DNA from: a virus
Taxonomy: Duplodnaviria > Heunggongvirae > Uroviricota > Caudoviricetes
Virus record (IMG/VR): IMGVR_UViG_2563366983_000010
DNA: 33,981 nt
Direction: 5' to 3' (one strand)
Position 1 is the stretch's first letter. Each line of letters starts with the position of its first letter. Below the pieces are notes generated by a model. That model searched no databases and was not told the DNA's origin. It saw nothing but the letters and a program-made list of their open reading frames with translations. Positions 8,757 to 33,981 of the stretch are shown one piece after another. Both the position numbers and the translations under genes were made by a program.

Positions 8757-9817
8757 GTGGCCACCGCCTTTGTTTTCTTCGTCTTCGCTTTCATTTCCGG
8801 CATGTCCAGTGATTCAGGCGGAACCAGCGCCAGAACCGTCATCCGCCCCTGTGCGCCATCCGTCCAGGTCACCCCGGATATCAGCCAGGTGGTTTTCAGG
8901 TTCTGAATGCTGTCGTCGATATCGACAAGGCGATTGGTCTGCCACAGCGGGCCGCTGTCGCCCTGTTCGCGCCAGCCTGCCACCGTGATTTCCGTCGTGC
9001 GGGATTCCCCCAGCATCCGGGCTTTGTACCATTCCCCGCGAATGCTGGCCCCGCCCACGGTCAGGCTGTCTTCATTGACCAGAATGCGCGGGCGGTAACG
9101 GTTAATTTCCGGGTCTTCGGTGATGTACTGGCGACCGCCCACCATCGAGGCAGGCTGGCTGTCCCACAGTTTGCCACCGGCACTGGTGGTGCCTTTGATG
9201 ATGTACTGGCTGTTACGCTCCCGCCAGCTGAAGCGTCCACGGGCGGCGAGGATATTTTTCCCCAGCACCAGTGACACACCCGCGCGAACGGAAGAGGCGC
9301 GGGTGATAATCAGGTTACCTGCGCCGTCAGACGTCAGCAGAACGCCGCGCTGTTTTGCCAGCCGGTCGAGCAGTTCAAAACCCGTTTCACCCTGTTCCAG
9401 AACGACAGACGCAAACGCCTCCCCGGTCGGGGTTTCCGTAATGACGGTTATCCCGAACGGGCAGCAGACATCAGCCGCCACCTGTTCAAGCCGCACGCCT
9501 TTCCATTTCCCGGACGAATGCACCACAGAGCAGTCAACCAGGTCGCCGGTTTTGTCGCGCCCCATGACGCGAATCTCCACGTTATCTGCGTCATAGCTGG
9601 GGATAAAATCATCGATATACCCCGTCAGCACGGTATCCGCGCCCAGCCTGACCGTGCAGGGTTGCCCCTCACGAATCACGCGCGGTGCCGCCGCCGACCA
9701 GCGGGTTGTCACACTGAGATCAAACTCACCGGCAATCGCCTTCAGGGAACGGCTGATGGACATTTCCGTCCAGCCTTCCCACAATTTGCCGTCAACGGTA
9801 AGAATCACGGATTCCAT
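8747..9817 (-). CDS. Tail/baseplate hub protein (Mu P-like, gpD-like)
   Basis: 356 aa; start is ATGA-coupled to the upstream N-like gene. Confidence 0.6.
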   Translation of the reverse strand: MESVILTVDGKLWEGWTEMSISRSLKAIAGEFDLSVTTRWSAAAPRVIREGQPCTVRLGADTVLTGYIDDFIPSYDADNVEIRVMGRDKTGDLVDCSVVHSSGKWKGVRLEQVAADVCCPFGITVITETPTGEAFASVVLEQGETGFELLDRLAKQRGVLLTSDGAGNLIITRASSVRAGVSLVLGKNILAARGRFSWRERNSQYIIKGTTSAGGKLWDSQPASMVGGRQYITEDPEINRYRPRILVNEDSLTVGGASIRGEWYKARMLGESRTTEITVAGWREQGDSGPLWQTNRLVDIDDSIQNLKTTWLISGVTWTDGAQGRMTVLALVPPESLDMPEMKAKTKKTKAVATWD

Positions 9818-15463: not shown

Positions 15464-16040
15464 GGATCACGTCGTTAATCTCAGTATGTTCACCGCTACG
15501 CAGCGTTGCCCCGAGGCGCAGGAAGTCCGGGAGCGCGGCGAGATCAATCTCTTCATCCAGCTGAAATTCCTGCTCCCACGTCACCGCCCACATGGTGACG
15601 CCCAGCCCGTCGAGGCTGGCGGAGTAAATGTTGTCTGCCCGCACATCAGCAGCCATGCGTTCAGCCCCCATGCCCCCGGTGGCATCCGACGACAACAGGC
15701 GTTTGATCACCTTCCCGGCCAGCACTTCACAGCGCACGTCGCGGGAGTACCCCCACGAATCCGTCGCCATGATGTAAGCCACCCAGGTAACCAGACCGGA
15801 CAGCCCGCCGCGCGGGTTGATATCCCGGACACGCAGGGCAGCTACCCGGATACAGCCGGTGCGACCGGACAGATAGCGTTTGACTTCCTCCGGGCTGTTG
15901 AACTGGCCGATGTGACGCTCCACCACGTCAGCCCGGTCAGGGGTTTTCCCCTGAAGTGCTGTTTTCAGCCAGGCCACAATGCGCTCTGCGGCCGCAACGG
16001 TGCTCCCCGGTGTGCGCAGTTCAGGGCGTTGTTCTGTCAT
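15429..16040 (-). CDS. Tail completion / virion protein (Mu gp37-like)
   Basis: 203 aa; position only. Confidence 0.5.
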   Translation of the reverse strand: MTEQRPELRTPGSTVAAAERIVAWLKTALQGKTPDRADVVERHIGQFNSPEEVKRYLSGRTGCIRVAALRVRDINPRGGLSGLVTWVAYIMATDSWGYSRDVRCEVLAGKVIKRLLSSDATGGMGAERMAADVRADNIYSASLDGLGVTMWAVTWEQEFQLDEEIDLAALPDFLRLGATLRSGEHTEINDVIHVRGDDGTETD

Positions 16041-17398: not shown

Positions 17399-18301
17399 TT
17401 ATGCCGGGGTGGTGATGAACGGACTGACCACGATGTCCACATCCTTGTACCAGATGTTGGAATCGCCGCCGTTTACCAGCATGGCGTCAATGATGCGCTT
17501 CGCAGCCGCGCGATTTTTCGGTCCCACCACAAGGGTGGTCGGGCGGATGCCCAGCGGTTCACCGTTGGTGGCCTTCATACCCAGCAGCAGATTACTGGCG
17601 CTCTCGTAGTTCTCCGCTGTCAGTGCCGCACGGGAACCGACGGCGGTTTGCCAGAAGCCGAATCCTGCATTACAGCGACCGTCCACCCCGTACAGGAACT
17701 CGTTATTCTTGAAGGTGTGCTCGCTGTTCAGATCGTCCAGGGCTTCAAACTTAAAGGCGCGTCGCGTCTGCCAGATGATGGGTTTCAGTACCTGAGAATC
17801 ATCAATCAGAAACCACGGTTCCCCCTGGTCTGATGCCGGGGTGCCGACAACGTTGCTGTATGTGCCGTCGCCCAGCGGGTGGTCTTCATCAAAGAAGTTC
17901 TGACCGTCAAAACACAGGGTGTTAAACCCGGCACACAGCAGGGGGTAACACAGCTTGTCCGGGAACTCTGACGTCTGGCGGCCATAGCGTTCAGCGATAA
18001 TGCTGTACTGACCAATCTGATCGTCTTCAATGTGTTCGCGTTTAACGCGGATCGAACTTTCCCAGGTTTTGTTCGCAAGGGTGTAACCATAACCGTCCAG
18101 CGTTGCCATCTGACGGGCGCTGACCCATTCTTTAATCTCCGGTAAATCTTTCATCCAGCCGTAGGTATTGGAAGCGGACGAACTCGGGATTTCAGAGGCG
18201 ATGCGCTGCCACTGTGGGGTAACACCACTCAGACCACGGGTATAAGCGGCGCTCAGGCAGGTGGTCAGCGCGTGAAGGACTTCGGAAGTGACTGCTCCCA
18301 T
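17399..18301 (-). CDS. Major capsid protein (Mu T-like)
   Basis: 300 aa, immediately downstream of the protease/scaffold gene (ATGA overlap). Confidence 0.8.
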   Translation of the reverse strand: MGAVTSEVLHALTTCLSAAYTRGLSGVTPQWQRIASEIPSSSASNTYGWMKDLPEIKEWVSARQMATLDGYGYTLANKTWESSIRVKREHIEDDQIGQYSIIAERYGRQTSEFPDKLCYPLLCAGFNTLCFDGQNFFDEDHPLGDGTYSNVVGTPASDQGEPWFLIDDSQVLKPIIWQTRRAFKFEALDDLNSEHTFKNNEFLYGVDGRCNAGFGFWQTAVGSRAALTAENYESASNLLLGMKATNGEPLGIRPTTLVVGPKNRAAAKRIIDAMLVNGGDSNIWYKDVDIVVSPFITTPA

Positions 18302-19263
18302 CAGTTATTCTCCTGTTTCGGTTTAGCGGCGAGGAACTCTTCCCCGGTAATACCCATGCTGCGGCACATCGCCAGTTCGGCGTCGGTCAGTGTCTGCGCG
18401 GGTTTATCCTTGCCCTGGCTGGGCTTGTCGTTGTTCACCAGCGGCTGTGCACCTCTGGTGTATTCCGCAAACTGTTTGCGGCCTTCTTCCGTGCGGCAGG
18501 TGGCAAGGAACATGTCACGGTTTGCCGGGGCCACTTTTCCGGCTTCGATGGCCGCATCCACAAGCGCTTCTGCTTCCTTAGCTTCCAGTTGCTGAAGGCG
18601 TTGTTCTGCGGTTTCTGCACGGTTCAGTGCCAGATTGTGGGTTTCCACCGGCACAAACTTCGTCAGGTCAGGTGTCTGTGCGCGGTTCAGCGCCACCTGT
18701 TCGCTCTCCTGAAGTTGTTTAATGGCGGCCACGGTATCGTCCACCGTGGCGGATTCAGCCAGCCCAAGCAGGCCGGTGATTTGCACAGGTACTGTCATCG
18801 GGTTTTTCTCCGTATTCAGTGCAGGAAAATCCAGGTTAGGTTTGTTGGTCAGCCCGACGCTGGACAGGCGCGTCACCACACCCTCCGCGTCATGGAAAAA
18901 CGCCGGGCTGTAATAGCGATAGCGGCGCTCGCTCAGCATCCACCTGGCGGATTCACTCCAGACAACACGCCCTTCAATGATGCCGTTGTCCGTCACCCGC
19001 AGTTCTTCCACCCAGCCATACGCCGGGGCTTCATCACCGCGTTGCCCTTTAATTTCGGTGGCGTGTTCAATGTCCACCGGAATTTTGATGTCGGACGAGC
19101 GGGTGACCACCTCATGCGGATTGCGGTTAATCCACGTCCGGCCATCGCGCCCGGTGAACTCACCCGCAGGGACGAGTTCAAGCCATTCCGGCAGTTGAGC
19201 GGGTGTCAGCTCAGGGATGGGTTCTGGCAGGGAAAAACACAGCGCCAGCAGTTCCGGTTGCAT
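18301..19263 (-). CDS. Head maturation protease / scaffold (Mu I-like)
   Basis: 320 aa; first gene after the F-I intergenic region; ATG at 19261-19263 with GGAG RBS. Confidence 0.75.
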   Translation of the reverse strand: MQPELLALCFSLPEPIPELTPAQLPEWLELVPAGEFTGRDGRTWINRNPHEVVTRSSDIKIPVDIEHATEIKGQRGDEAPAYGWVEELRVTDNGIIEGRVVWSESARWMLSERRYRYYSPAFFHDAEGVVTRLSSVGLTNKPNLDFPALNTEKNPMTVPVQITGLLGLAESATVDDTVAAIKQLQESEQVALNRAQTPDLTKFVPVETHNLALNRAETAEQRLQQLEAKEAEALVDAAIEAGKVAPANRDMFLATCRTEEGRKQFAEYTRGAQPLVNNDKPSQGKDKPAQTLTDAELAMCRSMGITGEEFLAAKPKQENN

Positions 19264-19312
19264 GTCAGTCTCCGTCGTTTGGGGTTACCGACGGTCAGTA
19301 TGCGGAAGGCAG

Positions 19313-19338
19313 AAAAAAAGCCGGATTTACCGGCTTCA
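19313..19338 (-). terminator. Intrinsic-terminator-like hairpin plus U-run (GAAGCCGG-TAAAT-CCGGCTTTTTTT); copy 1 of a duplicated element
   Basis: Minus strand reads TGAAGCCGGTAAATCCGGCTTTTTTT, identical over 26 bp to 26879-26904. Confidence 0.5.
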
Positions 19339-19476
19339 CTGAAAACGGGAAAATACCCCCTTCAAAACCCCTTCAAAAACGCCACAGCATCTTCAAAAAC
19401 GTCAGAATGCACATTCACGCCATCAGAATAAAAAACGCGTTTCTGATGCGTTTCAGGGGGATTTGCGGCGGGAGGG

Positions 19477-20241
19477 TTACTCTCTGTCAAAACGGGCCTG
19501 TTTTGTCGCCAGCTGGCGCGCCAGCGCCTGCTCACGGTTTATGCCGGGATTGTAGTTCCAGCCCGGATCAATCCCTTCCGGCACCTCTTCCTCTTCGCCC
19601 GTGCGTTTGTTCACCCAGCGGACAGTTCTGATTTCCGGCGCTTCGGTGTGAATGGTGCCCTGTGCCGCCAGTTGCGCATATTCACCACGGCTGACCTGAC
19701 GGATGGTGCATTTGCAGCCCCAGCCGTTAGGGGCGAAATGTGTCAGCCAGAACGGATGATCAACCGGCAGACACAGACGTGCCCATTTCACATGCTCCGC
19801 CCGGTGCTCGCGGGATGGTCCCAGCTCGTAAATCAGATACGGCATGGCCCGCTTTGTCCGCTGGATGCGTTCCCACTGGCCCGCCGCGCGGGCGGTGCGC
19901 ATGTTGGTATCAAAAATCGTGCGGAGGCGGCGGTCGCTGCCCAGTTGCACGGTGCGGGTTTCGCCCGTCAGCGGATCATCCATCTCCTGTACGCCCCACC
20001 ATCCGCGTTTTATCAGCAGCGGTTGCAGCGCCTCCCGGAACTCGCTGAACGTCTGTCCGCTTTGCAGGGCGTCTTCCACAAGGGCTTTCACATCCGACAA
20101 CAAATCCAGTTGCAGCATTTTTGCCACGGTGAAGCTGTTCCGGTGTTCTTCCCGCCACACATCCCGGTAATCAAAACCGGGGCGCAGCTTCTTCGCCTTC
20201 AGCCACGCCAGCGCCTCTTTCGGGATGAGGGTTTCACGCAT
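19477..20241 (-). CDS. Head morphogenesis / minor head protein (Mu F-like)
   Basis: Start chosen at Met20 of ORF 19477..20298 (GGGGGA RBS, minimal overlap with the portal stop). Confidence 0.65.
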   Translation of the reverse strand: MRETLIPKEALAWLKAKKLRPGFDYRDVWREEHRNSFTVAKMLQLDLLSDVKALVEDALQSGQTFSEFREALQPLLIKRGWWGVQEMDDPLTGETRTVQLGSDRRLRTIFDTNMRTARAAGQWERIQRTKRAMPYLIYELGPSREHRAEHVKWARLCLPVDHPFWLTHFAPNGWGCKCTIRQVSRGEYAQLAAQGTIHTEAPEIRTVRWVNKRTGEEEEVPEGIDPGWNYNPGINREQALARQLATKQARFDRE

Positions 20242-21805
20242 GGCCGGTGTCCCCCAGCGCACGCGCCTTAAAGCACACCTCCGCCAGTTGCAGGGCAAAG
20301 TCGTCCGCGTTCAGCGTTTCCTGAAGCTCAGGCAGACGTTTCAGAAAGTCATCAAAACTGTCGCATTCCTGCGCCAGTGTCAGCACCGGGTTTGTGAACG
20401 CCTCGCCGGTTTTCTGCCAGTCACGCAGGGCATCATCCACCATCTGAGCCAGTTCGTCGGGGTGTTCCCGGTTCAGGGCGACGCGCTCGCGGTTCATCGC
20501 CATTTCACCTGACATTCCGGCAGAAACCGGATGCAGAACATCAGCCCCTTCGTCCGGTTCCGCCAGGCCGAACCGATCCCGCAGCTCCGATTCCTGAACC
20601 CGCATCCCCCGGTCAATCAGTGGCACCAGAGCATCAGTCAGCGCCTTCAGATCTTCGGCTTCACTGATACGCAGAACAACACGGGGATAGTGCGCCTGTG
20701 GCCCGTAGTTGGCCTCGATGTAGGGACGCACCAGATATTCATTCAGCGTGTTAGCCAGCTGTCGCGCGTCCCAGCGCACAATGTCCATGCGCACCTGATT
20801 GTGCACGTCCGCCTGTGAACGCGAACTGCCGTTATCTGTGGTCATGGTCTGCCCCAGTACGGCTTTACTGATTTGCGCATCGCACCATTCCGCCATTTCA
20901 CGGAACAGTGCGCCGCCGTTATTCCGGCTGGCGGTTTCCTTCATTTCCAGTTGCATGGACTGCGGAATGGCACACCCGGCATCCGAGGCAATGGAAGCAA
21001 TCGCATCAATCAGCACGCGGATTTGCTCCTCCGTGGCGTTGGGGCCGTATTTCCCCACTGTAACCGGAATGCCGAACTTTTCCGCAAATGCCCACCAGTC
21101 GCGCACGGTAAAGGATTTCAGCATGTACATCACCGCCACCAGACGGGCCAGACCGTTACGCAGCGGCAGACCGGATTTCAGGCGCGGCTGGTGAACAATG
21201 AATTTTCCCGGTGTCAGCGGTACGCCATCCACCGGTTCATCGTCAGTCAGCAGGCGGAACTGGCGCAGCGTGGTTTTTTCGGCTTTCAGAAAACGGGGAT
21301 CAACCCACTCATAATCACGGGGAATCCAGTGGTTTTTGTGGGTATTCCAGAGGATTTCACAGACCGCCACGCCTTTTCCCAGCCCGTCGAGCAAATCAAA
21401 CATCAGTTCGGGGATTTGCGGGGCTTCCATCAGTGCACGGATGGCGTCCGCCAGTTGCACGTCAGCATCGTCATCACTGGCGGCCACCACCACCGGTTCG
21501 ATACCCGCCACCGTCAGCTTGCGGGTGCGCAGCACCGAGGCGTAATGCAAATCACGTTCTTCCATCTCTTCGGCAAGGATAAAAAAATCACGCGTGATGC
21601 CGTCGGCGGCATTGCGCAGAATGCCTGCCAGCCTGCCGGGATTCAGCCCGGAAGCAATGCTGATGCCCGGCGAGGCCGAACGTACGCCAGCCTGACGCGG
21701 GCGGGCCTGTGCTTCATTGAGCGTCTCTTTTTTCAGGGTGTCGCCCTCACCGGTTGTCGGGTTCAGCAAATGACGAACATCCCCGGTCTGTTGTTTCAGG
21801 TTCAC
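20234..21805 (-). CDS. Portal protein (Mu H / gp29-like)
   Basis: 523 aa directly downstream of the terminase large subunit; apparent GTG start overlapping the terminase stop. Confidence 0.75.
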   Translation of the reverse strand: MNLKQQTGDVRHLLNPTTGEGDTLKKETLNEAQARPRQAGVRSASPGISIASGLNPGRLAGILRNAADGITRDFFILAEEMEERDLHYASVLRTRKLTVAGIEPVVVAASDDDADVQLADAIRALMEAPQIPELMFDLLDGLGKGVAVCEILWNTHKNHWIPRDYEWVDPRFLKAEKTTLRQFRLLTDDEPVDGVPLTPGKFIVHQPRLKSGLPLRNGLARLVAVMYMLKSFTVRDWWAFAEKFGIPVTVGKYGPNATEEQIRVLIDAIASIASDAGCAIPQSMQLEMKETASRNNGGALFREMAEWCDAQISKAVLGQTMTTDNGSSRSQADVHNQVRMDIVRWDARQLANTLNEYLVRPYIEANYGPQAHYPRVVLRISEAEDLKALTDALVPLIDRGMRVQESELRDRFGLAEPDEGADVLHPVSAGMSGEMAMNRERVALNREHPDELAQMVDDALRDWQKTGEAFTNPVLTLAQECDSFDDFLKRLPELQETLNADDFALQLAEVCFKARALGDTGHA

Positions 21806-26235: not shown

Positions 26236-26823
26236 TCACCCCCGCGTGGTGGACGGCGCGTTGTCGATGATTTCCAGACAGGCGTCGGTCAGTTTTTCCA
26301 TGCGGTTAAACCAGCCATTCAGGTATTTGCCCTGGGCGGGTTTGGATTTGATGATTTCGGCATAAAAGCGGGAACGACGGACAATGCAGCGGGTCAGCAA
26401 CCAGTCCGGGGTGGACAGGCTCACGGCCTTACGGGTACGCGGGCCGATGATGCCGTCAGCATCCACATCAGTGGCTTCCTGCAAAATTTTGATAGCTTTT
26501 TTAACGCCATGCTGAACCGCCGCATCGAACACAAACATCGCCACGCCATCAGGCCACTGGTCACATCCGGCAGGCAGCCAGTAATCGCGCCAGTAAATCT
26601 GCGCAACCTGTTCGCGGGTTAAATCCTTAATGCGGGTGTCGGGTTTACCATCGCCGTTGACATCGGTTTTGCCGTCAATCACACCGTCGCGGCGGTCAGA
26701 AATGCCGTATTTGGTTTCGCCGCCACGGTCTGTGGGGTCATTGACATAGACGCCTTCGATATCAGGACGCAGAATAAAATTCAGCGCATGTTCAAAGGCC
26801 GGAGAGAATTTTTGATTTTCCAT
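26236..26823 (-). CDS. Endolysin, GH108-like lysozyme domain with C-terminal peptidoglycan-binding domain
   Basis: N-terminal EGVYVNDPTDRGGETKYGIS motif typical of glycoside hydrolase family 108; C-terminal DGIIGPRTRKAV motif typical of PG_binding_3. No signal peptide or SAR segment. Confidence 0.75.
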   Translation of the reverse strand: MENQKFSPAFEHALNFILRPDIEGVYVNDPTDRGGETKYGISDRRDGVIDGKTDVNGDGKPDTRIKDLTREQVAQIYWRDYWLPAGCDQWPDGVAMFVFDAAVQHGVKKAIKILQEATDVDADGIIGPRTRKAVSLSTPDWLLTRCIVRRSRFYAEIIKSKPAQGKYLNGWFNRMEKLTDACLEIIDNAPSTTRG

Positions 26824-26878
26824 AAAAGCACCTGTGAAGCAGAGTTAAACGTGGTCTGCTTCATAGTGCCGGAGGCAC

Positions 26879-26904
26879 AAAAAAAGCCGGATTTACCGGC
26901 TTCA
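26879..26904 (-). terminator. Intrinsic-terminator-like hairpin plus U-run; copy 2 of the duplicated element
   Basis: Identical 26 bp to 19313-19338; lies 20 nt after the stop of the 159-aa secreted-protein gene and 55 nt before the endolysin ATG. Confidence 0.55.
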
Positions 26905-26923
26905 TTGAATTAAGGGAAGATAA

Positions 26924-27403
26924 CTACTCATCTCCTTTGATGGAGCAATCTATTACCATATCGTTACCCATCTTGAGAAATTTGGTTTGCATGAGAAAAC
27001 CCTGTATCACGTCAGTTAACCCATACCCTTCAACTTTTGTAGCTGAAACTACCATGTCAATAATTCGTTTCTGCTGCTTCTCTGTTAGTTCACCAATTGC
27101 TGACTCTGCAACCCGCGAGCATGCTACAAAGGAAGACAACACACCTGAAGGATTGTTTTCAAAATCCTTTACAGTCGTCCTTGAGCTGACGACTTTATTA
27201 TTGATCGTAAATACCCCGAATTTGCTGTGAGCAGTTTCAGTTCCACCGTTCTTAATAGAATCGCCTCCCTTAAGAGGCATCCAGCTATTTAGTGCAATGA
27301 AATCTTTTTCTGTCAGACGTTTTTTGATGACATCTTCAGCTGGCAACTTTGCCGCATTAGCGCAAAATACGCTCAGTAAAAGTATAAGAGGAAAGTATTT
27401 CAT
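26924..27403 (-). CDS. Secreted/periplasmic protein with cleavable signal peptide, unknown function (159 aa)
   Basis: N-terminus MKYFPLILLLSVFCANA-AKLP is a classic Sec signal peptide. ATG overlaps the stop of the Mor-family gene (ATGA); AT-rich relative to neighbours; followed by the terminator hairpin. Confidence 0.6.
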   Translation of the reverse strand: MKYFPLILLLSVFCANAAKLPAEDVIKKRLTEKDFIALNSWMPLKGGDSIKNGGTETAHSKFGVFTINNKVVSSRTTVKDFENNPSGVLSSFVACSRVAESAIGELTEKQQKRIIDMVVSATKVEGYGLTDVIQGFLMQTKFLKMGNDMVIDCSIKGDE

Positions 27404-27810
27404 GACTCATCCTTAAACAGTTGCATTTGATATTTTCCACGCTCCAGCCTTCGCATTCTTTTGATAGCTTGATATACCGTTTTGTATGTCACTTTGTAAC
27501 GCTGCACCAGTTCCGCTACGTTTTTCCCATCAAAATCACGCCAGATGCGCATGTCTCTGATAAGATTTTCCAGTATTTTCCCTTTAGGAACATATACCTG
27601 AATCCCACCGATATGATTACAAATCGCCACTACCAACTCAAGGGAATAGACCGGGTTAACCCCAAGCCTTATCAGTTCCTGTCGCAACAGAGCATTCAGC
27701 TCTGAAAGTAGCGCCGGATAAACATATTTTTCCTGATAATCGTGAAGATATTCCAGAACGGTGTCGTCCCGGAAGTCTTCGAATAAATCCTGCTCTTTCA
27801 TCTGTTTCAT
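27400..27810 (-). CDS. mor: Mor/C-family transcription activator (middle/late gene activator)
   Basis: 136 aa with C-terminal helix-turn-helix (NVAELVQRYKVTYKTVYQAIKRMRRL); ATGA-coupled to gemA as mor is in Mu. Whether it acts as Mor, C, or both cannot be decided from sequence. Confidence 0.7.
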   Translation of the reverse strand: MKQMKEQDLFEDFRDDTVLEYLHDYQEKYVYPALLSELNALLRQELIRLGVNPVYSLELVVAICNHIGGIQVYVPKGKILENLIRDMRIWRDFDGKNVAELVQRYKVTYKTVYQAIKRMRRLERGKYQMQLFKDES

Positions 27811-28358
27811 ACAGCAATTCTCCCGCTGTTTCGTGCGCGGGCATACGCACTGGTCAGTGCATCATAGCCGCGCAGCTCCCGACCGGTTTCGCTCACAGGT
27901 AAAGGCACACCATGTCGGGCAAAGGCTTCACGGATGCAGCGCATATGCCACTGTTTGAGCGTTTCGAGCACAACCTGCAACGATTCCCCGTGACACCAGG
28001 CCAGTGTGGAAACCCCCTGACCGCCATTACGTCTGGCCGTCAGGCGCTCAACGTATTTGTCCAGCGCGGCGTCGCTGATATCGGAAACGAAACCATCAAG
28101 GAACATCTGCTGCCAGATTTTGTAAATCTTCTCGCGTGGTGTGACATGCCCCTTAAAGCGACGGCGGGGATGTTTTTTCTGCTTCTTAAAACCGCGCTTT
28201 TTCATGGCATCGAGCACTTGTTCCAGTTGTGCAACGGACAGCTCGCGGCAACTGGTTTTGCCCGTGCACTGCACCAGAAAAGCTCGGTAAGTGTCATCGT
28301 CGAGTTGCAACTCCCGACGGGCAACATGAATTAATTTAATCAGGGATGTGCGGCTCAT
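27807..28358 (-). CDS. gemA: GemA-like early protein (Mu gp16 family)
   Basis: Start at Met16 of ORF 27807..28403 (MSRTSLIKLIHVARRELQLDDDTYRAF), AAGGAG RBS; sits directly upstream of the Mor-family gene. Confidence 0.65.
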   Translation of the reverse strand: MSRTSLIKLIHVARRELQLDDDTYRAFLVQCTGKTSCRELSVAQLEQVLDAMKKRGFKKQKKHPRRRFKGHVTPREKIYKIWQQMFLDGFVSDISDAALDKYVERLTARRNGGQGVSTLAWCHGESLQVVLETLKQWHMRCIREAFARHGVPLPVSETGRELRGYDALTSAYARARNSGRIAV

Positions 28359-28725
28359 TATGTCCCATCTCCTTAATGCAGTGTTTTTCGACCCATGCCA
28401 CACGAGCAGAATTCAGGTGACATCTGCCAAGTCTGCATTCCTCATGATAGTGCGCTCTACTTTCATTGAAAGGTAATAATTCATCCAACTCGTTCGCGAT
28501 AAAATCTGCACGTAATTGTTCTAATATATCTTCGGTATCCACTCCGATTTCGTCAAAATAACGACAAGCATTTGCACATAATCCTGAATATTGAACAAAT
28601 ATTTCACCCTCTGTTTCTGGTGCACCATTTTTTAACCACTGGTTATAGGCAACATAAAAATCATAAAGATGTTTTCTGGTGCTGGCGGATGTGGATTTAA
28701 TTTCATTTTTCTCTGCGTTATTCAT
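28336..28725 (-). CDS. Hypothetical early protein, Cys/His-rich C-terminus (129 aa)
   Basis: Start at Met12 of ORF 28336..28758 with AAGAGG RBS at 9-nt spacing; C-terminal HYHEECRLGRCH...HC could bind metal. Confidence 0.45.
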   Translation of the reverse strand: MNNAEKNEIKSTSASTRKHLYDFYVAYNQWLKNGAPETEGEIFVQYSGLCANACRYFDEIGVDTEDILEQLRADFIANELDELLPFNESRAHYHEECRLGRCHLNSARVAWVEKHCIKEMGHNEPHIPD

Positions 28726-30923: not shown

Positions 30924-31862
30924 TTACGTGCGCAGCAGGGTTGAAATATCAACGTCCAGGTCTAATTCACGGAAAGCCTGACGCAGATAATTTTCATTAA
31001 CACGATCGCCTTTACCGTAGGCTGTCATGGCCGCAAGGCGCAGCGAGTGATTCAGGATACGAAGCGCACCTGGTTTTTGTGCAATCTGTTGTAATAATTC
31101 CCGCTCGTTTTCGCCGGTAATTTGCCAGGCATCCGCAATGGCTTTTACATCGTCAATTTTGGTTTTATTGATTGCCGTCCGTTTGGCAATACGGGAAAAC
31201 AGGCGGGCAAATTCAACCGTTCTGTTACCACCGGTCATGTTTGAATAAACGCGGTGATTCCCCATCAGAACAAGACCAATACGGGCGGACTCCTGTAACA
31301 GGCGGAGTTCTTCCAGAACCTCAGCGCCAAGATGATCAGCTTCGTCGATAATGACCAGCCCCTGCGTACCTTCAAGACGGCGTCTCAAAGCGCGGGAGAG
31401 TGGCCCCTTACGGCGCGGTGCGTCATTCATTCCCAGTTCATAAGCCAGTTCAGTCAGGCATTCCAGAACACTGGCACAGGATGGGGTAATGGTGATCATC
31501 CAGACATTGTTATTGGTGCGACGAAATTCGCGGGCCGCTTCAGTTTTTCCCACTCCTGGATTACCACAGATAACAGAAATACTTTCAGTCAGGCTGGCAA
31601 AACGCATACTTGTCCAGATTTGGCGGACCGTTCTGGTTTCCACAAAACGCGGGGGTTCTGGCAGTTCTGCGGCGCGGTGATAGTTCTCCAGCCAGCGTTC
31701 AAGAGACTGCGCGACACGTTCATTGTCGCCGTTGTACTTGTCATTCACGAATGCGCTTAACGTTCCTGCGGCCACCCCAGACTCGCGGGCGATTTGTGCA
31801 TAAGTTGTTTTTTCATTTTCTACAAGCGTGCGCAGTCCTGCACGAATATCGGAAATATTCAT
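30924..31862 (-). CDS. B: Transposition ATPase / target DNA activator B (MuB, AAA+)
   Basis: 312 aa; [17 protein letters not shown]-terminus with HTH, Walker A (GNPGVGKTE) and Walker B ([10 protein letters not shown]); closely matches Mu B as recalled. Confidence 0.9.
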
Positions 31863-31899: not shown

Positions 31900-33981
31900 T
31901 TAAATGGCTTTTTTACGTCTGTTCTGTTCCAGAATATCCAGTGAATTATTCAGATATTCGTCGCGGTCGCTTTCATATTCATCGTCCGGTTCATCTGCCA
32001 GCACTGGCACGACTTTCTCCACTGGTCTGTAGACGTTGCTGAACAACCCGTTGCCTGTAACAGGAGCTGGCAGTGTTCGGGTATTCTCTGCCTCGGCCAG
32101 TCTGATTTTTTCCTCTCCGCGCTGACGCATCCCTTTGATACGCTGCTGGCGCTGATGGTATTCCGCAGTGACCGGGAATGCCTGCTGTTTATTGCCATCC
32201 CAGACAGCCTCACAGATATAGGAACCGTCCATGCGGCGGATAATTACTTTTGTTGCATCATGAATATCGTAATTCACCAGCACCTTATTACCGTGCTCAT
32301 ATTCCAGGTCAGTTGAATAATAAATATTATTAAACAGCCTGACTTCACAGCGGTTGACTGTACGTTCAATCTGGGGCATAAACATTTCACGCAGTTCAAG
32401 GTCGGACAACCATTCGATTTCCGTCGCTTCTTTTTCCAGTTTGTAGCGTCGGAACTGCGCCGGGGTGTAATGTTCACCGTTTCCACGTAGTGGTAGCGAA
32501 CTATGCGGACGGTTGTTGTACCATTCCACACCAGCTTCAATAGCAGCAATAAGTTCATTCCATGACGGCAGGTTTTTTAAAGCCTGCCGTTGTTTTTCAG
32601 TCAGCTCCCGTCCTTTGTTTGCCGCATTTGTTGCAGATATCAGAGCCTTTGTCGTCCGGCGAACCGTTCCACGGTCGGCACCGGTGCCATAATACGTGGC
32701 AAACTGGCGTGATATGCGCATAGCCAGAGTACGGTTCAGACGCTCTATAATCCCTCGCCCTTGCGGGTTTTCCGGTATACCAAGACGGTGATCAATTCCA
32801 AGACGCGGTAAGACACCCGTAATATCAGCATCGAACGTGTTATTGGTTTCACCGCCGCCATTATCTGAATAATAGATATACGGTTTGCCGTGATTTTTTA
32901 TTCCGTGGCGTAACGCATCAGCAACAGCAACCACACTTTCAGAAAGTGCCAGACTCCAGCCCACAATAAAGCGGCAACTGCCGTCCATGATAAAGGTGAC
33001 TTCTGGGGAAAATGGATTGCCGTGATCAGGATGTGCCACTTTCATCTTCATGCCGTGACCATCACCAATCCAGGCATAATTTACCGGTAAAGATAACCAG
33101 TCCCGACGCACGAAGCCTTCATACTGCCGGAACTCGCTGCCTGTAACGCGCCCACGTTGTTTCACAACAACCGGGAGTTTGTTCATGGCATAGCAAACCT
33201 GATCATACGACGGCAGTGCTGCACACATCGCAGGATTGTCCTGATGCACTTCATACCATTCCGCAGCAAAATCATCATAAGCCTCTCGTATTCCGCACCC
33301 GTTCGGACGGCGGTAAAAGCGAAGAAACTCTGGTAACCAGCGAATCTGGTCTGGTTTTATGGGCTGACGTTTGCCTGGTGCCAGCATGATCAGACGTTCA
33401 GCCGGAGTGGTTGCTTTTTTAAAATCAGCAATCCAGCGTTTCAGTGATATTTCACTAAGGGAGCGCAAAGAACCTTTTTTCGCGTTCGCAGTTGCAACGG
33501 TTTCCACCAGGTGTGCCGGTAACTCACCGTTTTGAGCCTGTTTCACAAACTCACGGATAGCGGCGGCCTGGCTGATTCCTGGTAGTTCACAAACGCGCAA
33601 AACTTCGCTGACAATCGCAATCCGGGCATCCGCTGTTTCTTTTTGCGTAGCGGTTAACGTTCCGAGTTTCTGCTCAAACAGCGCAGGACATTTGCGGTAA
33701 ACCGCAATTTTGCCGTCTTCACGTTTTTTTAAACGCGGAGATTCAGGTTCTTTTGCCTCAGTTGCTGGCTGATTCATTAACGCCTTAATCTGGCGAGCCT
33801 GTAACGCCTTACGCGCCACATCAGGCAAACAGTCGACATGGAACTCAAAAGCCTTTGTCCCTGCACGCTTACGCATCATTCCTTCTGATTCGCCGCAATA
33901 ACGGCGCAATGCTTCCCGAATTCCTTTAATTGTTTTTGGTAATCCTGGTACACCGACCAGCTCTTTGGCGAGAACAAACAT
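31900..33981 (-). CDS. A: DDE transposase A (MuA family), apparently complete
   Basis: 693 aa. N-terminal GLPKT motif as in MuA domain I; WIGDGHG (DDE Asp region); C-terminal DDEYESDRDEYLNNSLDILEQNRRKKAI matches the MuA C-terminal tail. ATG at 33979-33981 is the last codon of the window. Confidence 0.85.
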   Translation of the reverse strand: MFVLAKELVGVPGLPKTIKGIREALRRYCGESEGMMRKRAGTKAFEFHVDCLPDVARKALQARQIKALMNQPATEAKEPESPRLKKREDGKIAVYRKCPALFEQKLGTLTATQKETADARIAIVSEVLRVCELPGISQAAAIREFVKQAQNGELPAHLVETVATANAKKGSLRSLSEISLKRWIADFKKATTPAERLIMLAPGKRQPIKPDQIRWLPEFLRFYRRPNGCGIREAYDDFAAEWYEVHQDNPAMCAALPSYDQVCYAMNKLPVVVKQRGRVTGSEFRQYEGFVRRDWLSLPVNYAWIGDGHGMKMKVAHPDHGNPFSPEVTFIMDGSCRFIVGWSLALSESVVAVADALRHGIKNHGKPYIYYSDNGGGETNNTFDADITGVLPRLGIDHRLGIPENPQGRGIIERLNRTLAMRISRQFATYYGTGADRGTVRRTTKALISATNAANKGRELTEKQRQALKNLPSWNELIAAIEAGVEWYNNRPHSSLPLRGNGEHYTPAQFRRYKLEKEATEIEWLSDLELREMFMPQIERTVNRCEVRLFNNIYYSTDLEYEHGNKVLVNYDIHDATKVIIRRMDGSYICEAVWDGNKQQAFPVTAEYHQRQQRIKGMRQRGEEKIRLAEAENTRTLPAPVTGNGLFSNVYRPVEKVVPVLADEPDDEYESDRDEYLNNSLDILEQNRRKKAI

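Follow-up and report, generated by a model that had tools for sequence, protein, structure and literature searches.

The stretch of DNA analysed here, 33,981 nucleotides (nt) of a Mu-like prophage from IMG/VR record IMGVR_UViG_2563366983_000010 (hereafter the window, meaning the whole stretch), has all of its genes on the minus strand and carries, at two places on that strand, a short element consisting of a hairpin and a downstream box. The first-pass annotation had read this element as a duplicated terminator with a late-operon promoter in the position that the early terminator and Plys hold in phage Mu. We find that it is very likely a promoter of the Mu Pm type, dependent on the activator Mor, that has an intrinsic terminator built into it and is used twice in a two-tier regulatory cascade. 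A terminator combined with a late-operon promoter is still the most likely description of the element, whereas its assignment to the C-dependent Plys type does not hold, since it is a Pm homolog in a phage with no C gene.

Written on the plus strand, copy 2 (26861-26904, TCATAGTGCCGGAGGCACAAAAAAAGCCGGATTTACCGGCTTCA) and copy 1 (19295-19338, TCAGTATGCGGAAGGCAGAAAAAAAGCCGGATTTACCGGCTTCA) are identical at 38 of 44 positions and share an exact 26-bp core (26879-26904 = 19313-19338). Allowing up to three mismatches, we found this 26-mer at only these two places in the window and in none of 100 dinucleotide-shuffled sequences, in agreement with the duplication first described. On the coding strand both copies conform to TTCA[A/G]TGAAGCCGGTAAATCCGGCTTTTTTTnTGCCTnCnGCA, followed by CACTAT or CATACT. 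Because the similarity continues upstream of the 44-mer as TTCA[A/G]TGA, to 26909 and 19343, the functional unit is probably about 57 nt long (26856-26912 and 19290-19346) and not 44; the similar region reaches about 8 nt beyond the upstream limit first given, and the original boundaries had cut off half of the activator site, which lies in the upstream flank. A profile made from 86 unique elements of the family recovered exactly two sites in the window (E ~1e-18) and two in the related prophage of Escherichia coli UMNF18. Neither the window nor 44 kb of UMNF18 contained an extra copy, and nhmmer searches of the window at E values up to 1000 added only marginal matches, several of them on the wrong strand. 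Rfam at gathering thresholds returned no family over the whole window, and megablast of the phage collection with 2.5 kb around the site gave no match; that collection represents the element family at protein level only, for example through Klebsiella phage Kp4866-3.

Each copy contains the minus-strand hairpin GAAGCCGG-TAAAT-CCGGCTTT followed by T7, which a scan flagged as terminator-like. The RNA has an 8-bp stem with five G-C pairs, a 5-nt loop and a U7 tail, and its predicted folding energies of -13.3 kcal/mol (copy 2) and -12.8 kcal/mol (copy 1) were reached by none of 200 shuffled sequences (z -3.8 and -3.5), confirming the hairpin proposed for the coding strand. Both copies therefore combine a G+C-rich stem-loop with a U-run downstream of a gene, the arrangement of an intrinsic terminator, 20 nt past the stop codon of a 159-amino-acid (aa) open reading frame (ORF) for copy 2 and 139 nt past the stop codon of gene F for copy 1. 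As the first description had it, copy 2 sits between the stop codon of the 159-aa ORF and the ATG of the endolysin gene, at the junction of the early and lysis operons; copy 1 lies between F and the protease I gene.

The register of the core, the T-run and the -10 hexamer is the same in the two copies and in Mu at 9163-9233 (...CAGTAAAGCCGGTTAATCCGGCTTTTTTTACGTCCTCAATATCCTG...), and a recurrent variant of the family, TGTAAACAGTAAAGCCGGTTAATCCGGCTTTTTTTACGTCCTCAATATCCTG, is phage Mu itself. The Mu record annotates the 9163-9233 region as the 'middle promoter, activated by Mor' and places a terminator inside it at 9179-9200; as a terminator, the Mu Pm hairpin has the status of a TransTermHP prediction in that record. 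Pm has a -10 hexamer without a -35 hexamer and is bound by a Mor dimer on a 16-bp element, in which 5-bp inverted repeats flank a G/C-rich 6-bp spacer, centred at -43.5 and covering -51 to -36 (PMC4390567, PMC4287176). Changing C-52 of Mu to A or T halves Pm activity (PMC4390567). We calibrated the numbering on the wild-type Mu bases -57 to -52, GTAAAC (PMC4390567 Table 3), which sets the Mu +1 at 9224 and makes the Mu Mor site AGTAAAGCCGGTTAAT, that is AGTAA-AGCCGG-TTAAT. The CCGGC 3' arm of the Mu hairpin then falls at -35 to -31, the T-run at -30 to -24 and TATCCT at -13 to -8. In the same register, the two copies in the window are made up as follows.

26907-26912, minus strand: copy 2, TAATTC at -57 to -52, A/T-rich and ending in C(-52), equivalent of the Mu proximal UP subsite GTAAAC
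26891-26906, minus strand: copy 2, Mor-site homolog AATGA-AGCCGG-TAAAT at -51 to -36, 13/16 positions as in Mu
26879-26903, minus strand: copy 2, hairpin (26883-26903) and T7 (26879-26885), inside the promoter
26869-26878, minus strand: copy 2, spacer 'box' GTGCCTCCGG at -23 to -14
26863-26868, minus strand: copy 2, -10 hexamer CACTAT at -13 to -8, then an invariant G; register of Mu TATCCT
26855, minus strand: copy 2, predicted +1 of the lysis/packaging operon, by homology to the mapped Mu Pm +1
19325-19346, minus strand: copy 1, GTTTTC at -57 to -52 and AGTGA-AGCCGG-TAAAT at -51 to -36, 14/16 positions as in Mu
19313-19337, minus strand: copy 1, hairpin (19317-19337) and T7 (19313-19319), identical to copy 2
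19303-19312, minus strand: copy 1, spacer box CTGCCTTCCG
19297-19302, minus strand: copy 1, -10 hexamer CATACT
19289, minus strand: copy 1, predicted +1 by Mu Pm spacing

In copy 2 the Mor-site spacer doubles as the 5' arm of the hairpin, whose 3' arm occupies -35 to -31 and is followed by the T-run at -30 to -24; of this hairpin the Mor site covers only the 5' arm and the loop. Because the GCCGG of the spacer and the CCGGC at -35 are complementary and are followed by T7, RNA that arrives from upstream would form an intrinsic terminator at the same place. Both copies keep an A/T-rich -57 to -53 and C-52 (TAATT-C and GTTTT-C). The copy-2 -10 hexamer is 25-30 nt from the centre of the hairpin loop, as in Mu. 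Neither copy has a -35 hexamer, the region reading CCGGCT, or an extended -10, there being no TGn before the hexamer (GG-CACTAT, CG-CATACT), and a scan for consensus sigma-70 promoters found none on the minus strand at either copy. What had been described as the box is the promoter spacer, n-T-G-C-C-Y across the family, together with the -10 hexamer. We rejected the hairpin dyad as the activator dyad, as the published centre at -43.5 and the -57 to -52 bases put the Mor site half a turn further upstream, and we rejected TATGAA and TTTTAT, the latter in the T-run, as alternative -10 hexamers, as they lack the A2 and T6 that are invariant in the family.

To follow the element beyond the window we used a pattern scan of viral contigs, which gave more than 120 loci among the matches listed. 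We examined 130 occurrences and tallied conservation over 31 sequence clusters, which are phylogenetically non-independent. Mu-like prophage contexts account for 125 of the 130, with the element at the same two or three positions and always facing the same way with respect to the genes. A GH108 endolysin homolog follows it in 85 (in 18 of these the element comes directly after mor), F and protease I flank it in 27, and 13 are Mu-type Pm sites (mor, then gp18/19). The other five are other or chance occurrences. Members of the family were identified in E. coli, Klebsiella and Serratia, and the prophage group is found in 56 of 5,426 complete E. coli genomes as well as in the other two genera. Outside the search pattern, A-51 and A-47 were kept in all 31 clusters, T-49 in 27 and C-52 in 26, and A2 and T6 of the -10 hexamer and the G that follows it in 31/31. 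In two Serratia prophages with endolysins 61-65% identical and other genes upstream, the element stands nearly unchanged before the endolysin gene. The positions kept across the clusters are those expected of an activator half-site and of a sigma-70 -10 element, and not those of a terminator.

An independent sample, relatives collected through their protease I homologs, is decisive for a promoter over a plain terminator, as judged by sequence conservation. In phages whose protease has about 60% identity, AGTGAAGCCGGTTAAT is retained before gene I and is followed after 22-23 nt by CACACT; ACAGTGAAGCCGGTTAAT is kept, and CACACT is one base further from the site. At these P_I sites (L146-L154, Kp4866-3) the 3' arm and T-run are gone (…TTAATCCACCTGAGTCCCCG…); the copy that closes the early operon of each such phage, before lys, always has the full hairpin and T7-8. 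Two further P_I sites have a broken T-run and a recognizable stem: in L145 a compensatory pair change (GGCGG/CCGCC) preserves the stem, and in Serratia L001 it is imperfect (GCGG/CCGCC with one bulged base). Because the P_I sites have lost the terminator half, the constant parts of the element are the Mor site and the -10 hexamer, with the terminator half kept where an operon must end.

The same relatives bear on whether the hairpin terminates transcription at all. GCCGG-N5-CCGGC could be kept solely as a symmetric DNA feature for the activator, for example for a second Mor dimer, a tetramer contact or the region beside -35, with no useful termination. In its favour, bases just downstream of the activator dyad are also required for promoter function in Mu (PMC2582627), and tetrameric action of Mor at A and B sites is described in a 2025 preprint; the symmetric change in L145 and the imperfect stem in L001, both with a broken T-run, fit DNA symmetry and RNA structure alike. 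Symmetry for the activator does not account, however, for the uninterrupted T7-8 behind the stem in all copies that close an early operon, including those of the independently sampled relatives, or for the P_I copies that do without the 3' arm and T-run (L146-L154, Kp4866-3) or without the T-run (L145, L001). Because these P_I copies have lost them, the promoter appears to need neither the 3' arm nor the T-run, and the fact that both persist where one operon gives way to the next speaks for termination. We therefore regard DNA symmetry as the sole reason for the palindrome as unlikely.

Still less probable is a duplicated intrinsic terminator and nothing more, marking two operon ends, with the late genes transcribed by read-through or from other promoters. 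The hairpin and T7 do have the form of a terminator at both sites, and both sites end gene blocks. A terminator would need structure alone, yet A-51, T-49, A-47, C-52 and the -10 invariants at their fixed spacing are conserved, relatives keep the flanks before gene I after loss of the 3' arm and T-run, and experiments have defined the same sequence in Mu as a Mor-dependent promoter. Finally, a C-type late promoter (strict Plys or P_I) or a mobile repeat of the REP or MITE kind unrelated to phage regulation is suggested by the occupied Plys and P_I positions of Mu and by the short palindromic repeats, but is extremely improbable given that the C gene is absent, that TTAT-N5-6-ATAA, the MuC consensus (PMC12867686), is in neither copy, and that 125/130 occurrences are in Mu-like contexts at fixed positions and in fixed orientation, with no extra copies in the window or the 44 kb of UMNF18.

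A promoter of the Pm type with a built-in terminator thus remains our preferred reading, and the gene content of the window provides a presumed activator for it. The genes that matter here are the following.

31900-33981, minus strand: transposase A
30924-31862, minus strand: transposase B
27807-28403, minus strand: GemA
27400-27810, minus strand: Mor-family transcription activator gene (Pfam PF08765, E 3.9e-29), downstream of gemA
26924-27403, minus strand: 159-aa ORF with a signal peptide, last gene of the early operon; translation MKYFPLILLLSVFCANA...
26829-26833 and 26821-26823, minus strand: Shine-Dalgarno sequence (SD) AGGTG and ATG of the endolysin gene
26236-26823, minus strand: GH108 endolysin gene (Pfam PF05838 and PF09374), first gene of the copy-2 operon
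19477-20298, minus strand: F, grouped with the terminase and portal genes
18301-19263, minus strand: Mu-type protease/scaffold gene I (Pfam PF10123, E 1.4e-44), first gene of the copy-1 operon
after protease I, minus strand: capsid, tail and baseplate genes
2023-2851, minus strand: com-mom

The protein encoded at 27400-27810 shares 59% identity with Mu Mor and 31% with Mu C, and the recognition helix of its helix-turn-helix is near-identical to that of Mor (VTYKTVYQAIKRMRRL versus VTFNTVYKAIRRMRRL in Mor). We did not find a second gene of the Mor/C family, or a C homolog, in the window, and the annotation of the complete related prophage of E. coli UMNF18 has a single Mor-family protein. From its sequence, the 27400-27810 protein is the presumed activator of both element copies. 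The C-terminus of this activator (27400-27425, minus strand) reads ...YQMQLFKDES, where that of Mu Mor is QPSLL; it resembles QPDLF, the C-terminal clamp-binding motif of MuC (PMC12867686), and a Mor ortholog that does the work of C may make a C-like clamp contact.

In this phage we infer Mor binding, the start sites and termination from homology. Early transcription would enter from the left end, pass through mor and the accessory ORF and stop at the copy-2 hairpin and U-run. Mor made from the early operon would accumulate and bind -51 to -36 (A[A/G]TGA-AGCCGG-TAAAT) at both copies, bringing in sigma-70 RNA polymerase at a promoter with CACTAT or CATACT as its -10 hexamer and without a -35 hexamer. 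Transcripts starting near 26855 would then cover endolysin, lysis, terminase, portal and F, and those starting near 19289 protease I and the capsid and tail genes. Transcripts of the lysis/packaging operon would stop at the copy-1 hairpin, immediately ahead of P_I, a place where Mu has a separate hairpin predicted to be a terminator. Because the C gene is absent, such a cascade would have two tiers (early, then Mor, then late) in place of the three of Mu.

Structurally, the element agrees with Mu Pm in the 16-bp Mor site at -51 to -36 with an identical AGCCGG spacer followed by TWAAT, in C-52, in CCGGC at -35 to -31, T7 at -30 to -24 and the -10 hexamer at -13 to -8 without a -35 hexamer, in the hairpin and T-run inside the promoter and an inverted repeat directly after the -10, and in having a Mor ortholog encoded just upstream, after gemA. 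It differs in its half-sites, AATGA/AGTGA and TAAAT against AGTAA and TTAAT in Mu, and in its use. The window has it twice and Mu once; copy 2 is parted from mor by the accessory ORF, and copy 1 follows 7.5 kb further downstream, in the F-I interval. In Mu the promoter drives a middle operon ending in C, while the window copies would drive late operons directly, the downstream genes being those for endolysin and protease I. With no C in the window or in UMNF18, the element can be called Pm-type by its structure, but not 'the middle promoter' by its role. The placement in the Mu early-terminator/Plys position is right as far as position goes; in Mu itself, however, the Pm module comes after mor and before the C operon, not before lys. 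The early/late boundary coincides with the Pm position here because this phage lacks a C gene.

With Mu Plys and P_I the two copies share genomic positions and downstream genes (the lysis cassette and protease I), and in Mu they are, and in the window are predicted to be, activator-dependent sigma-70 promoters without a -35 hexamer, each preceded by a terminator. Inverted repeats cross the start site in both, as placed from the record annotation in Mu and from Pm homology in the window. The window sites are of the Mor type, lacking TTAT-N5-6-ATAA, in a phage without a C gene, whereas the Mu sites are of the C type, TTAT-N5-6-ATAA; and the Mu terminators are separate hairpins upstream of the promoter, whereas those of the window are embedded in it. 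The core of copy 1, CCGCATACTGAC, aligns with the Mu P_I core, CCGCAAACTGAC, and the F-I intergenic region aligns with the Mu G-I region, so that the P_I core promoter appears to be orthologous and only the activator module to differ. Upstream of copy 1 (19339-19476, minus strand) there are also a separate terminator-like AAACGCGTTTTTT hairpin and a repeat, TTTTGAAG, that occurs three times and reads TTTTAAAC in Mu and the relatives; in the Mu record the G-I region is marked as containing a gyrase cut site and a terminator prediction.

Several points weigh against a Mor-dependent promoter used twice. The start sites at 26855 and 19289 are transferred from Mu by spacing. The specificity for Mor is deduced, because the half-sites differ from Mu at 2-3 of 16 positions and the activator is 59% identical. 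Conservation of the family core (-46 to -28) is partly by construction, because the main comparative sample was collected with a pattern that fixes that core. A search of the window gave no Mor-type site for the baseplate and tail-fibre genes or for com-mom, and no Mor-type equivalent of P_P or Pmom; with no further Mor-type site, the two promoters would have to serve about 24 kb, or others exist.

The first-pass annotation had also noted a further inverted repeat at about 26834-26858, between the box and the endolysin start, that might modulate translation. The repeat exists and has a counterpart at copy 1.

26835-26863, minus strand: copy-2 leader inverted repeat, 5' arm TGAAGCAG at 26856-26863 (-8 to -1) and 3' arm CTGCTTCA at 26835-26842
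19272-19294, minus strand: copy-1 leader inverted repeat, CCGTCG at 19289-19294 (-5 to +1) and CGACGG at 19272-19277, the latter overlapping the SD GGAG at 19270-19273

The copy-2 repeat does not lie between the box and the start, as its 5' arm shares one base with the end of the -10 hexamer and 3 nt with the beginning of the 44-mer and runs to about -1; its 3' arm ends 1 nt before the SD, and the repeat folds at -14.2 kcal/mol (z -2.8). If the +1 is where it is in Mu, the 5' arms are upstream of it or just reach it, and because of this only read-through RNA could fold over the ribosome-binding region. A role in translation is probable, given the predicted opening energies and the co-variation described below.

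In every family member the bases directly after the -10 hexamer are complementary to the ribosome-binding region, with the 3' arm 5' of the SD in the endolysin group, over the SD in the gene I group and over the AUG at Mu Pm. The arms vary by cluster (GAAGCAG/CTGCTTC, AGAAGG/CCTTCT, GGGATT/AATCCC, CCGTCG/CGACGG, GTCCGG/CCGGAC and others), and the loop varies from 4 to about 25 nt. Pairing of the 5' arm with its own 3' region was on average stronger than with those swapped between 32 clusters (-9.7 versus -5.3 kcal/mol; Mann-Whitney p 1.6e-13). The predicted cost of opening the ribosome-binding region was 12.95 kcal/mol in read-through RNA and 4.91 kcal/mol in promoter-initiated RNA (Wilcoxon p 2e-8); it was 8.97 kcal/mol in read-through RNA with -7 to -1 shuffled and 8.29 kcal/mol with the promoter region of another member. 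For the window copies the corresponding read-through and promoter-initiated values were 10.8 and 4.3 kcal/mol (copy 2) and 9.0 and 3.0 kcal/mol (copy 1). In the copy-2 read-through fold an outer helix pairs GGCACU, from the 3' end of the box and the -10 hexamer, with GGUGCU in the SD region.

Mu promoters have inverted repeats placed likewise, at -6 to -1 in Pm, -8 to +1 in Plys and -4 to +3 in P_I. The Plys repeat is CUGCCAUCA/UGAUGGCGG, with its 3' arm over the lys AUG, and the 3' arm at P_I is just before the SD of gene I (L125 10445-10490 and 18020-18060); the Pmom repeat is mostly inside the transcript. For this comparison the Mu Plys and P_I start sites were deduced from the promoter annotation of the record and a C-site centre of -43.5, and that of Pm from the published mutant numbering; the C-site positions of Plys and P_I were not placed with confidence and are not relied on.

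From these folding predictions we infer a translational effect: read-through RNA would fold the bases of the -10 to -1 region over the SD and start region and be translated poorly, while Mor-started RNA would lack the 5' arm and leave the ribosome-binding region open. Whether the leader repeat is a fold-back lock of this kind, blocking translation of leaky read-through RNA, we judge to be an even call. The broader proposal, that Mor- and C-dependent promoters of Mu-like phages, including Mu Pm, Plys and P_I, have a built-in 'anti-ribosome-site' (DNA from the -10 hexamer to about +1 maintained as a complement of the ribosome-binding region downstream) that silences read-through RNA and leaves translation to activator-initiated RNA, is more tentative, and we put it slightly below even; we found no description of such a site for Mu in the searchable literature. 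Four observations weigh against the lock. Pairing in a fixed register is modest, at 69% against 59 +/- 2% after permutation, although none of 2000 permutations reached it. Part of the complementarity comes from the purine-rich and pyrimidine-rich character that the arms share. In the endolysin group the effect depends on the weaker outer helix and on thermodynamic prediction, because the inner stem stops 1 nt before the SD, and in one cluster representative (the L005 P_I variant) the stem is disrupted.

A rather less likely explanation for the start-spanning repeat is a role other than insulation: processing of read-through RNA by RNase III or otherwise, stabilization of the mRNA if the true start is upstream of the arm, or promoter opening at the DNA level. 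Co-variation indicates selection for pairing and is silent on its purpose, the endolysin-group stem stops short of the SD, and the start sites in this phage were placed by Mu spacing, all of which would suit such roles. Against them, the 3' arm always tracks the ribosome-binding region through loops of 4 to about 25 nt, and it reaches into the SD or the AUG itself at gene I sites and at Mu Pm and Plys. A 5'-terminal stabilizer is argued against because the 5' arm in Mu is wholly or mostly upstream of +1, with the start sites as used here.

Fold-back of this kind has a counterpart in the insertion sequences IS10 and IS50, in which transposase mRNA reportedly folds back and inhibits expression by read-through from outside (Davis, Simons and Kleckner 1985; Krebs and Reznikoff 1986). 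Those sequences have the 5' arm upstream of their own +1 and the 3' arm at the ribosome-binding site, and the inhibitory structure forms only in transcripts from upstream, as proposed here. In the phage, by contrast, the 5' arm would be the promoter -10 and discriminator, at an operon junction that also holds a terminator, the structure is a predicted one, and many stems of the family adjoin the SD and do not cover it. Literature searches on C-less Mu-like cascades and on IS10 fold-back gave nothing directly usable. We likewise found no description of two-tier wiring or start-spanning repeats in the searchable literature; older Mu papers are outside it, and an earlier mention is possible.

If the preferred reading of the element as a Mor-dependent promoter with a built-in terminator is correct, a so far unannotated repeat of a widespread Mu-like prophage group gains a function and an activator, and the three-tier cascade of Mu has a natural two-tier relative. 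Rewiring would have occurred by a swap of activator sites, Pm-type modules replacing C-type sites before otherwise orthologous core promoters. The design would be compact, as one 50-bp stretch is read both as DNA (activator site and promoter) and as RNA (terminator). The co-varying start-site repeat suggests how read-through transcripts might be kept from expressing lysis genes early, which would also be applicable to Mu; if the lock is real, the terminator embedded in the activator site and the fold-back would together form a three-layer lock on the lysis and morphogenesis genes.

In L007 and L012 the loop of the leader hairpin, about 20-35 nt past the -10 hexamer, contains ACCGGATTAACCGGT, which repeats in inverted form the palindrome that makes up the core of the Mor-site hairpin. 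The interval between mor and the element also varies. It contains unrelated small accessory ORFs across relatives (L001 9359-9874; L002 9548-9880), and in 18 loci mor adjoins the element directly and the slot is empty; the interval has the look of a cargo slot closing the early operon. The 159-aa ORF that fills it in the window gave no match in a Pfam search.

At the other end of the window, the com-mom region (2023-3016, minus strand) is present despite the absence of a C gene. Com is 71% identical to Mu Com, and Mom, at 96.5% identity to Mu Mom, is far closer to Mu than the rest of the phage. The region upstream retains the GATC cluster known from Mu Pmom, but it lacks a Mor-type site and its version of the C site TTATGCCCCAATAA has degenerated to ATTAAATACCCCCAG.

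The closest complete relative, the UMNF18 prophage (L124; NZ_AGTD01000001.1 3087316-3117936), is 96.9% identical over the lysis region and is inserted in a zinc-binding dehydrogenase gene beside yphB, with partial gene fragments at both ends. It is decayed, the sheath gene being truncated and baseplate P and J frameshifted, and both element copies are intact. Klebsiella phage Kp4866-3 (L155; OK490420.1), an unannotated ('UNVERIFIED') 33-kb record, is a member of the family (7569-9190; 15978-16004). It encodes one Mor and has a Pm-type site at 8297-8359 before a GH108 endolysin gene, followed by a Mu gp18 homolog, and a degenerate site without the hairpin before gene I; it could serve as an experimental model. 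For annotation, the motif CA[A/G]TGAAGCCGGTWAATCC followed by ~22 nt and NANNNTG should be usable to mark late operon starts in such prophages.

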